From: a virus
Lineage: Duplodnaviria > Heunggongvirae > Uroviricota > Caudoviricetes
Virus record (IMG/VR): IMGVR_UViG_2565956719_000002
Strand: one strand, 5' to 3'
Length of the DNA: 64,000 nucleotides
Shown: one piece after another, positions 60,165 to 61,704 of the stretch
Position numbering within the stretch: position 1 is the stretch's first letter
Layout of the letters: the number at the start of each line of letters is the position of its first letter
Translations under genes and position numbers: made by a program
Notes under the pieces: generated by a model
The model's database searches: none
What the model was told of the DNA's origin: nothing
The model's input: only the letters and a program-made list of their open reading frames with translations

Positions 60165-60344
60165 CCTCTCACTCCATTATTTAACGAATAAAAAAGCTGC
60201 GGTGCCGGGTGCCTCCCGGTGTCCTTTGGCTGGTTATCCACCGTGGACGGGGAAGCAAGGAGAAATAATGGACAGATATAACCATTTCCCCGCGTGCGCT
60301 TAGCCGCATTCACCGCAACGGAAAGAGCATTCTTGGTGGACCTG

Positions 60345-60370
60345 TAGATTGGGATATGAACCCGTTACAG
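60345..60370 (-). repeat. T-arm-like repeat copy 1
   Basis: Minus strand reads GTAACGGGTTCATATCCCAATCTA. Confidence 0.4.
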
Positions 60371-60623
60371 GAGAATGCTCTTACCTGTTACGTGCTCCGT
60401 TTCGTGGAGCTAACGGCGGGTGATCGGGCCGCACCATGCTGGACTTATTTCAGCGTTATGCTCATGCCAGAGAATCAAACTGTGATGGTCGGTGCTGAAC
60501 TCCGACACAGGGTTGTAGCAAGCCCCGCAAAGCGCGCACTACTGTAGTTGCGGCACATCAGCCTGTGCATTCACCACAATGTTGAGAACACTGGTTGTCA
60601 CGCTGCCTCGCGACATTTATTCA

Positions 60624-60648
60624 TAGATTGGGATATGACCCCGTTACG
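60624..60648 (-). repeat. T-arm-like repeat copy 2
   Basis: Plus TAGATTGGGATATGACCCCGTTACG; near-identical to copy 1. Confidence 0.4.
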
Positions 60649-60821
60649 CCAGTGTTCTCAACGTTGTAGTGCCGGTTACGGTTCCGGCCAGGCCTCTTCC
60701 TCAACGGGGTGTTCTCCATACGGACTACCGTTTATTGGTCGTTCCTGCGGTTTATGTTGTGAAGCCAGATGCTTATCTTCTGGTTGCTTCAAAGAGCTGC
60801 ACTTCCTCACAACGGTAAGGG

Positions 60822-60893
60822 TACTTCGTAGGGATTCGAACCCTCTGCCAAGCTCGGCGATCTCCGACGTCGCAAAATACCCTTACCTGTTGT
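60822..60893 (-). ncRNA. Truncated tRNA-like element
   Basis: Acceptor-like stem, D-arm-like GCGA/TCGC and canonical T-loop GGTTCGAATCC, no anticodon arm; directly 3-prime of tRNA-Thr. Confidence 0.25.
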
Positions 60894-60895
60894 GC

Positions 60896-60971
60896 TGGTG
60901 CCGATTAACGGACTCGAACCGCTGACATCCTGCTTACAAGGCAGGCGCTCTACCAACTGAGCTAAACCGGC
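60896..60971 (-). tRNA. tRNA-Thr (anticodon UGU)
   Basis: GCCGGTTTAGCTCAGTTGGTAGAGCGCCTGCCTTGTAAGCAGG...GGTTCGAGTCC...CGGCACCA. Confidence 0.85.
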
Positions 60972-60973
60972 AT

Positions 60974-61049
60974 TGGCGATGGTGGATGGATTTGAACCAT
61001 CGACCCGTTGATTAACAGTCAACCGCTCTAACCGCTGAGCTACACCATC
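60974..61049 (-). tRNA. tRNA-Asn (anticodon GUU)
   Basis: GATGGTGTAGCTCAGCGGTTAGAGCGGTTGACTGTTAATCAAC...GGTTCAAATCC...CCA. Confidence 0.85.
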
Positions 61050-61178
61050 ACTTGCCGGGTACGTCTCCGGCGAGGGCTTCCACCTCCGTATGCTTTTCGG
61101 CGCACCGCGCCCTGGCTGCAATTCGGTAACAGGGGATGCACAACCCTGGCTTCCAGCGTGATTAGCGCCTTCAGCATG

Positions 61179-61199
61179 ACGGGATATACCCGTTACAAG
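61179..61199 (-). repeat. T-arm-like repeat copy 3 (shorter variant)
   Basis: ACGGGATATACCCGTTACAAG. Confidence 0.3.
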
Positions 61200-61704
61200 A
61201 AATTCTCCCAGGATGCCATTAAGCAATGGCTGTTACGCTGAATGAAAAAGGACGTAACAGGTAAGGGCACTGACCAAAAGATGGCCCCTTCTCGCTCATC
61301 TGGTTAATCGAACCAGCGCCCTTACCTTGTTATGCCTCCCCGTTCCCTAATACACAGACGGGGACACTCTGCGGTCGATTTTTTGACGGGGGACGACTCA
61401 TACCCCGTGGCGTCTGGCTTCTTAGGCCGCTACCATCATCAGATCATCGTTTGCATTTACTTTAATGGTCAGTTTCTAAACCGCCGCAAAGTCGCTAACC
61501 ATGACGAAAACCCTGAAAAAAACGCCCACCCGAAGATGGGCAAACTGGAAGCTCGTAACGCACTTCGGCGTTGCCACTTAGGCGCATGGTCAACCTGGCA
61601 ACTCGGTGGTTTGTCTGGGAGGACTAGGCCCAGCCATGCTTACCGCCGCGCCTGTCGCGGCTAACAGCTAAATCGCTCTATAAATCACGATTCATTGAGA
61701 CGAT

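Follow-up and report, generated by a model that had tools for sequence, protein, structure and literature searches.

A family of long hairpins in the tRNA-bearing ban operon leader of P1-like phage-plasmids

The ban operon leader and its hairpins

We analyzed a 64,000-nucleotide stretch of a tailed-phage genome (IMG/VR record IMGVR_UViG_2565956719_000002; the whole stretch is called the window here) and focused on a short region near its end in which tRNA genes alternate with structured elements. This region had been flagged in an earlier note made from the letters of the sequence. The window represents a P1-like phage-plasmid, and the 1.8 kb of it that surround the flagged region were 97% identical to relatives of phage P1 and 100% identical to an Escherichia coli plasmid from chicken (NZ_CP100487). 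The flagged features lie on the minus strand, in the approximately 1.5-kb untranslated leader of the C1-repressed ban operon. Coordinates of window features given below are on the minus strand unless marked otherwise.

The counterpart in P1 (NC_005856) is the start of the ban operon, which comprises Pban/Oban, a “dicF-like region,” trnA (Asn), trnT (Thr), tciABC, trnI, and ban. The ban operon features of P1 all map to the minus strand of the window, which carries a 78-amino-acid membrane open reading frame (ORF) and a 275-amino-acid lipoprotein/SPFH-like ORF in place of tciABC. Two further ORFs, upl and plp, are annotated on the opposite strand, with plp overlapping trnT. Transfer of the P1 annotation (P1ban and Obanab in NC_005856) placed the Pban promoter and C1 operator Oban, with the transcript start, at 61701..61735, and the operator sequence ATTGCTCTAATAAA was seen at 61719-61735. 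The “dicF-like” leader segment, also transferred from P1, spans 61505..61606 and ends in an intrinsic terminator (61542-61523), which a terminator scan found about 160 to 180 nt downstream of Pban. Given a strong terminator so soon after Pban, a short C1-controlled RNA may be made.

The earlier note had placed tRNA-Asn and tRNA-Thr genes 2 bp apart on the same strand, and both ARAGORN and Rfam agreed with it. tRNA-Asn(GUU) occupies 60974..61049 (Rfam tRNA model, 74.5 bits), and tRNA-Thr(UGU) occupies 60896..60971 (72.9 bits). ARAGORN called Met, Thr, and Asn tRNAs only. Except for the third copy of a short motif, all of the remaining flagged features are four paralogous long hairpins, M1 to M4. 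Along the transcript, the order is Pban, the dicF-like segment with its terminator, M1, tRNA-Asn, tRNA-Thr, M2, a spacer termed X, M3, a second spacer, M4, a structured module termed U3, the protein-coding genes, tRNA-Ile2, and ban. From tRNA-Thr to the first ORF, a stretch of 721 nt, the sequence folds with z = −6.0.

We scored the hairpins with R1, a covariance model built from 22 hairpin types, the E values of which are rough because its calibration was shortened. R1 gave exactly four hits in the 64-kb window (M4, M3, M2, and M1), all on the tRNA strand and at 50 to 68 bits. Antisense scores were 30 to 39 bits, and the sense strand was ahead by 14 to 37 bits.

M1 (61252..61335; inverted repeat I5) has the arms GCAUAAC-AA-GGUAAGGGCGCUG…CAGUGCCCUUACC-U-GUUACGU. 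It folds at −37.6 kcal/mol (z = −5.0) and scored 50.4 bits with R1 against 36.4 bits antisense.

M2 (60807..60895; inverted repeat I10) begins 1 nt past the CCA of tRNA-Thr, folds at −41.6 kcal/mol (z = −5.5), and scored 58.2 bits against 35.2 bits antisense. Most of it (60822-60893) had been read as a 72-nt tRNA-like element with an acceptor, a D arm, and a perfect T arm but no anticodon arm. The T arm stood, while the acceptor and D arm did not. What had been taken for the acceptor is a helix of 21 bp that contains a single bulged A and pairs CACAAC-A-GGUAAGGGUAUUUUG with CGAAGUACCCUUACC-GUUGUG; it has no CCA end and is followed by UUGUGA. The tip begins with a 4-bp hairpin, UCGG-AGAUCG-CCGA, which is the supposed D arm; its loop is 6 nt long and lacks GG, and the fold has no third or anticodon arm. 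Then comes the perfect T arm AGGGUUCGAAUCCCU, seen as AGGGTTCGAATCCCT at 60844-60830, which has the GTTCRANYC loop of a T arm and contains the sole exact GGTTCGAATCC within the window. M2 gave no tRNA hit with Rfam even at E ≤ 10 in a 1.6-kb search and was not called by ARAGORN, and no other flagged element matched the tRNA model at that threshold.

M3 (60574..60669; inverted repeat I1) has a 23-bp helix formed by CACUACAACGUUGAGAACACUGG and CCAGUGUUCUCAACAUUGUGGUG, folds at −51.6 kcal/mol (z = −5.5), and scored 60.0 bits against 38.7 bits antisense. M4 (60313..60393; inverted repeat I4) pairs GUAAC-A-GGUAAGAGCAUUCU with AGAAUGCUCUUUCC-GUUGCGG, folds at −37.4 kcal/mol (z = −4.5), and scored 67.9 bits against 30.5 bits antisense. 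The tips of both hold a 24-nt motif, GTAACGGGKTCATATCCCAATCTA, at 60647-60624 in M3 and 60368-60345 in M4. These two occurrences were 23/24 identical, and none would be expected by chance. Variants of the motif loop (UUCAUAU, GUCAUAU, AUCAUAG, and UUCAUUU) differ at the first and fifth positions, which correspond to T54 and A58. Because the loop varies at exactly these positions, it is not a T loop.

The earlier note had counted three copies of a GGG-TTCATAT-CCC motif. Two of them are the M3 and M4 tips. The third, at 61179..61199, is a small hairpin of its own (ACGGG-UAUAU-CCCGU), located between M1 and tRNA-Asn in the leader, and has only about 13 nt in common with the M3/M4 motif. It was not recovered by a 24-mer search allowing three mismatches. 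The small hairpin is kept in P1, D6, and Ro157, while its GTAAC prefix is absent in P1. The CTTACCTGTT words that had been described as repeats flanking the motif are the paired bases of the four long hairpins. Exactly three occurrences of AACAGGTAAG/CTTACCTGTT were found in the 64 kb, all of them in the flagged region; at one mismatch there were 10 matches compared to 2.8 expected, and none of 100 shuffles reached 10. Taken together, the earlier observation was largely real, but parts of it had been mis-assembled.

Covariation, strand preference, and distribution of the hairpin family

We compared the hairpins with those of P1, Ro157c2YLVW, D6, a Salmonella plasmid, three SSU5-like phage-plasmids (from Klebsiella, E. 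albertii, and an uncultured source), and 120 IMG/VR loci retrieved by the pattern CAACAGGTAAG…CTTACCGTTGTG. M1 to M4 have one layout: a helix of about 20 bp with the base (CA)CAAC-(A)-GGTAAG…CTTACC-GTTGTG, a covarying upper stem, and a variable tip of 17 to 82 nt. Across the family, the helix consists of a constant 12 bp plus 6 to 14 more and comes to roughly 20 bp in almost every type. Outside the window, R1 found up to five members per locus.

The earlier note had proposed covariation analysis in related genomes, and the stems do covary. Among 53 distinct arm pairs, 89.9% of cells were paired, compared to 34 to 54% when the partner columns were slid, and stem-alignment pairs 2 to 21 were mostly paired across these variants. 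Both sides change in 11 of the 22 stem pairs. The covariation score was 0.413 versus 0.197 for shuffled alignments, a value reached by none of 500 shuffles. A second class, class B, has the base CACAAC-GUUGAG…CUCAAC-GUUGUG, which is two compensated pairs apart from GGUAAG/CUUACC.

The two DNA strands of a hairpin are not equivalent once transcribed. RNA of the tRNA strand folded better in 31 of 33 hairpin types (mean, −37.7 versus −31.6 kcal/mol; Wilcoxon P = 2e-6), and with one representative per type there were 40 G·U pairs against 13 A·C mismatches; the types in these strand tests are not fully independent, but the direction was consistent. A count over all inverted repeats, unrelated ones included, gave 77 G·T versus 42 A·C. 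The G·U excess, the fold energies, and the sense scores of R1 together favor a structure selected in the transcript. Because the stems both covary and are strand specific, we conclude that they are under selection.

The tips behave differently from the stems. The same base bears at least 10 unrelated tips, of which the T-arm tip of the M2 type is one. Another, H13 (in locus L009), carries the T-arm-like GUAGAG-UUCGACU-CUCUAC, and a diverged Klebsiella homologue of M2 has lost its T arm. In Ro157c2YLVW (L002 1440-1473), the GGGTTCATATCCC core is gone from the M4 tip. Across many lineages, a family hairpin starts 0 to 3 nt past the CCA of the last tRNA of a run, whether that is Thr, Ser, or Asn.

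A scan with Infernal and Rfam, which the earlier note had also proposed, recovered both tRNAs. No Rfam family covered the hairpins, either at the gathering threshold over the whole window or at a permissive E value on the region and the other loci; besides the tRNAs and a subthreshold STnc100 match on U3, only spurious miRNA and YrlA matches appeared. Papers on P1-like plasmids mention the variability of tciABC and leave these RNA elements undescribed. The hairpins are thus an undescribed RNA family, found neither in Rfam nor in the literature searched.

The earlier note would have given up its proposal had the elements shown neither stable transcripts nor conservation in related genomes. We found them kept in P1-like and SSU5-like phage-plasmids and in some lambdoid prophages, and in one further setting, an opposite-strand island between tail genes. 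In locus L102 (8100-8500, plus strand), a lambdoid late-operon leader carries the family, with the Q antiterminator and its terminator at one end and the holin/endolysin genes at the other. In L037 (2400-3200, minus strand), it occupies an opposite-strand noncoding island between the tail-completion and major-tail genes of a siphovirus-type prophage. Stretches of the L102 and L037 type in E. coli chromosomes carry no annotation. Scanning one genome per species for the hairpin base returned one Escherichia contig and about 23 hits in unrelated phyla. By our own estimate, about 30 hits would be expected by chance from 20 fixed bases in 596 Gb. Since the non-Escherichia hits are at chance level, the family is confined to enterobacterial phages.

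Among 124 loci, the hairpins are reshuffled into more than 55 arrangements, and the hairpin bases and module ends coincide with the joints of this reshuffling between phages. That coincidence is probably a by-product. Two loci, L035 and L014, contain chimeric hairpins with the 5′ arm of M3 and the 3′ arm of M4, equivalent to a deletion of about 280 nt between the 24-nt tip repeats.

Proposed processing of the leader and competing explanations

A clue to what the stems do came from Qin, a prophage in E. coli K-12. Upstream of DicF in the dicBF operon, we identified a hairpin of the family layout at L152:19173-19258 (NC_000913.3 1649172-1649257), with the arms CCAUAAC-G-CG-A-AAGCGCAUGG… and …CCGUGCGCUU-C-CG-GUUGUGG. 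In a 0.9-kb search, R1 detected it over its full length and at first rank with 22.6 bits (E = 6e-6), compared to 10.8 bits antisense. According to published work (bioRxiv 10.1101/2023.04.14.536235, which cites and retests Faubladier et al. 1990), a 190-nt DicF species is lost without RNase III, and its 5′ end is an RNase III cut in the dicBF polycistronic transcript. Counting 190 nt back from the DicF 3′ end, that is, 137 nt upstream of the 53-nt DicF, arrives at about L152:19246. This position is within the 3′ arm of the Qin hairpin (NC_000913.3 1649234-1649257), with approximately 13 bp between it and the base and about 10 bp between it and the top.

The flanks of the two operons correspond as well. 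Over 97 nt, the “dicF-like region” of P1 had 77.6% identity with the pre-DicF leader of K-12 Qin; it matches the leader upstream of DicF and not DicF itself. At the other end, U3 is homologous to the dicF-dicB spacer (the dicB 5′ untranslated region) of the same prophage. These homologies imply that the P1 ban leader has its counterpart in the dicBF leader at both ends, with the tRNAs and hairpins in between.

Taken together, we believe that the hairpins are probably RNase III-type processing sites in a polycistronic tRNA/small-RNA leader, related to the one upstream of DicF in Qin. A continuous helix of roughly two turns (about 20 bp or longer) and selection on the transcribed strand are expected of an RNase III processing hairpin in a prophage operon leader, and the family has both. 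The earlier note had offered RNase P/Z processing signals among its possibilities; the approximately 20-bp helix and the homology to the hairpin upstream of DicF point instead to RNase III. Its broader suggestion of small structured RNAs or processing signals fared well, as these are conserved, covarying structures on the tRNA strand that most likely act in transcript processing.

In the model we propose, the region would be transcribed as one RNA when C1 repression is lifted, as the P1 annotation suggests. M1 to M4 would fold in that RNA, in the structure and on the strand described above. Host RNase III would then cut the helices about 12 to 13 bp above the base, as predicted from homology to the Qin hairpin. 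Cutting would free the tRNA pair with short 3′ trailers, the structured RNA modules, and the downstream mRNA, and exonucleases would trim the short tRNA trailers. The M2 T arm and the GGG…CCC mini-hairpin of M3 and M4 would decorate the tips and would not be what is left of functional tRNAs. So much structure may also shield the untranslated 1.5 kb from Rho-dependent termination and decay.

Several points weigh against this model. The R1 hit in Qin is weak, as it was missed under default filters and recovered only with filters off in 0.9 kb. The position of the Qin cut within the hairpin was placed by fragment length and not by the published coordinate 813/814. For the P1 hairpins, the proposed role of RNase III rests on homology and helix geometry. 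The low sequence specificity of this enzyme leaves the strong sequence conservation of the lower stem unaccounted for, as does the model as a whole for the recurrence of T-loop-like tips (M2, H13, and M1 of the window). Finally, the intrinsic terminator at 61542-61523 stands between Pban and the hairpins, and a consensus scan found no internal promoter in the leader region. With a terminator so early in the leader, read-through would be needed to express the tRNAs.

The tips themselves could be what matters. The hairpins would then be precursors of small stable RNAs, such as a tRNA mimic from M2, that serve as decoys or regulators, and the helix would be only packaging. Host anticodon nucleases attack tRNAs of the kinds found in this phage cluster, and the targets envisaged for such decoys are tRNA-directed host nucleases or tRNA-binding enzymes. 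The tips are structured, T-loop-like tips recur, and the 24-nt motif persists on two distinct stems, those of M3 and M4, and in SSU5-like phages. Nevertheless, the tips are the least conserved part of the family, ranging from 17 to 82 nt with unrelated sequences and no Rfam match; the motif is deleted from M4 of Ro157c2YLVW, and the T arm has decayed in the Klebsiella homologue of M2. We consider this explanation unlikely. A combined version, in which the conserved stem is cut by RNase III to deliver hypervariable tip RNAs, would have some of these RNAs mimic T arms and act as decoys or regulators, e.g., against tRNA-directed defenses or tRNA-modifying enzymes, and would have P1-like, SSU5-like, and lambdoid phages trade them as RNA-level cassettes via the stems. 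We regard it as a rather improbable extension.

A very doubtful possibility is that the inverted repeats work as DNA, as attC-like or boundary elements (single-stranded DNA folds or short joints) that shuffle cassettes of tRNAs and small RNAs. The extreme mosaicism (more than 55 architectures in 124 loci), the same flanks around different tips, and the variable tciABC junction at the end of U3 would fit such a role, and the chimeric M3/M4 hairpins amount to exchange inside the elements. tciABC is variable region 7 in PMC9603915. Ordinary recombination in the longer flanking homologies can explain the mosaicism, however, and the variable part lies inside the inverted repeat and not between sites. 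The module ends (…CACAAC and GUUGUG…) do resemble attC cores. The R″/R′ cores of attC sites are RYYYAAC/GTTRRRY, from which the cores here (GCACAAC/GTTGTGA, ACGTAAC/GTTGCGG, and similar) are one to two positions off, and class B hairpins lack an extrahelical base. No integrase or recombinase gene accompanies the elements in P1-like, SSU5-like, or lambdoid contexts; in P1, Ro157, D6, and the SSU5-like plasmids, none is annotated beside the cluster apart from an unrelated site-specific integrase about 1 kb away in L007. Moreover, the G·U pairs and fold energies favor the transcribed strand, and a cruciform would show no such bias.

It is just as improbable that M2, and perhaps others, are decayed tRNA copies that lost the anticodon arm and have no function of their own, as the tRNA pseudogenes of the earlier note would require. 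The perfect T arm of M2 does adjoin the 3′ strand of the closing helix as in a tRNA, and the H13 tip has its own T-arm-like sequence. Related phages carry extra real tRNAs (Tyr, Ser, and Arg) in their clusters, and one tRNA-Thr (L025) has its anticodon arm replaced by about 54 nt. The T loop is the sole tRNA feature of M2, however. Compared with 68 distinct phage tRNAs of related loci, M2 had only the 11-nt T loop in common with any of them, and its local alignment score of 23 equaled the best score of shuffled sequences. Tests with the tRNA models of Rfam and ARAGORN were negative, as described above. Decay also does not account for a base that carries at least 10 unrelated tips in relatives, for stems that covary in a strand-specific manner, for an M3/M4 loop that varies at T54 and A58, or for a T arm that has itself decayed in the Klebsiella M2 homologue.

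Lastly, that the plus strand encodes Upl and the lipoprotein Plp, with the repeats incidental, is scarcely credible despite the presence of both ORFs and their annotation in P1 and RCS47, since differences in upl fall at the third codon position in 1 of 22 cases and plp is broken in 8 of 21 alleles, while control genes are strongly third-position biased. The upl ORF (60356..60547, plus strand; P1 annotation) is antisense to the hairpins. Differences among its natural alleles were distributed over the codon positions as 11/10/1, with 1 synonymous change against 21 nonsynonymous changes. Neighboring control genes gave 16/4/278 and 84/87/607 (third position, 278/298 and 607/778). The plp ORF for a putative lipoprotein (60548..60925, plus strand; P1 annotation) has a TTG start and overlaps tRNA-Thr in antisense, and its breaks are frameshifts or stops. 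The region is noncoding, and upl and plp are probably spurious ORFs, i.e., misannotations.

Viewing the hairpins as probable RNase III-type sites, we see several consequences. About 1.5 kb of P1 and of hundreds of related plasmids can be reannotated as a structured RNA operon leader in place of upl/plp, and the P1 ban leader becomes related to the well-studied dicBF operon of E. coli. The new hairpin family is searchable and testable and offers a model for the release of phage tRNAs from a repressor-controlled transcript. The region is also a hotspot in which resistance-spreading phage-plasmids trade small RNAs and their sets of tRNAs. Should the RNase III prediction be borne out, it would provide a simple handle on the expression of phage tRNAs and small RNAs. 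The finding is useful for annotation and is not a new principle.

Flanking modules and comparison with known systems

The spacers between the hairpins are modules as well. Each starts with GUUGYGRUGAAUGC and a small hairpin and ends with a small hairpin and CAYCACAAC. Spacer X (GUUGUGAGGAAG…CUUCACAAC; 60756..60813), defined by comparing the window with L002, L004, and L007, has an internal hairpin and reappears behind different hairpins in other phages. Module U3 (60198..60317), placed by Rfam and alignment, is a structured RNA with UGCGGUG/CACCGCA as its closing helix and a U tract behind it. It matched Rfam STnc100 (RF02076) at model positions 31 to 147 of 206 with 37.9 bits, below the gathering score of 47 (E = 2.7e-6 in a local search). 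The junction with the variable tciABC region is the 3′ end of U3. The U3 of the window ends in a U-tract terminator, and the P1 and D6 versions are without one.

The tRNA repertoire differs widely among close relatives, which carry Asn or Arg, Thr, and Ile2, with or without Tyr and Ser. In L009, L010, L018, and others, tRNA-Arg(UCU) occupies the first slot of the cluster, that of tRNA-Asn(GUU), and matches tRNA-Asn in acceptor stem and T arm, as though its anticodon and D regions had been exchanged. The tRNA-Thr gene of L025 (2236-2365, minus strand) retains its acceptor, D, and T arms around the replaced anticodon arm and scored 44 bits with the Rfam tRNA model over 130 nt. It may represent a tRNA that is interrupted or bears an intron, or else a genuine tRNA-like derivative.

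Elsewhere in the window, there are two C4 antisense-RNA loci in opposite orientations, at 24764-24971 (plus strand) and 31362-31552 (minus strand). One has an a1/b1 target element, and the other adjoins an isrK-like small-RNA hit, an arrangement that points to two modules for immunity or antirepressor control in the plasmid.

Among known RNAs, M2 resembles tRNA and the Y RNA-like YrlA in having a canonical T arm stacked on a long helix. It differs in lacking an anticodon arm, a canonical D arm, and CCA, and neither model matches it; the single YrlA hit (25.6 bits; gathering score, 69) covers the two genuine tRNAs. The STnc100/PasD small RNAs of prophages share a partial match with U3, and STnc100 is also found in phage operon leaders, e.g., downstream of stx2 (PMC12370729). 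That match is below the gathering threshold, and it lies on U3 and not on the flagged hairpins.

The Qin dicBF operon is closer. Both it and the ban operon are repressor-controlled prophage operons with a long noncoding leader, and both ends of the P1 leader have homologues in the flanking modules of Qin. With a helix of about 22 bp and the base CCAUAAC…GGUUGUGG, the Qin hairpin is detected by R1 and carries in its tip the GGUUCAUA word, as M3 and M4 do. Qin differs in having one hairpin and no tRNAs, while in the P1-like leader four hairpins are interspersed with tRNAs. P1 lacks DicF, and cleavage has been demonstrated for Qin only.

Two classical phage systems offer a further comparison. The early mRNA of phage T7 has RNase III processing hairpins between its genes, and the tRNA cluster of phage T4 includes stable RNAs, of which species 1 RNA is an RNase III substrate. 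As in T7 and T4, paralogous hairpins are arrayed along a polycistronic phage transcript, where a host enzyme would cut them, and as in T4, structured RNAs other than tRNAs would be cotranscribed with tRNAs. There is no sequence relationship to either system, and the T7 sites, which separate protein-coding genes, have an internal loop. In the P1 family, a strongly conserved lower stem goes with hypervariable tips, and the family is common to unrelated types of phage.

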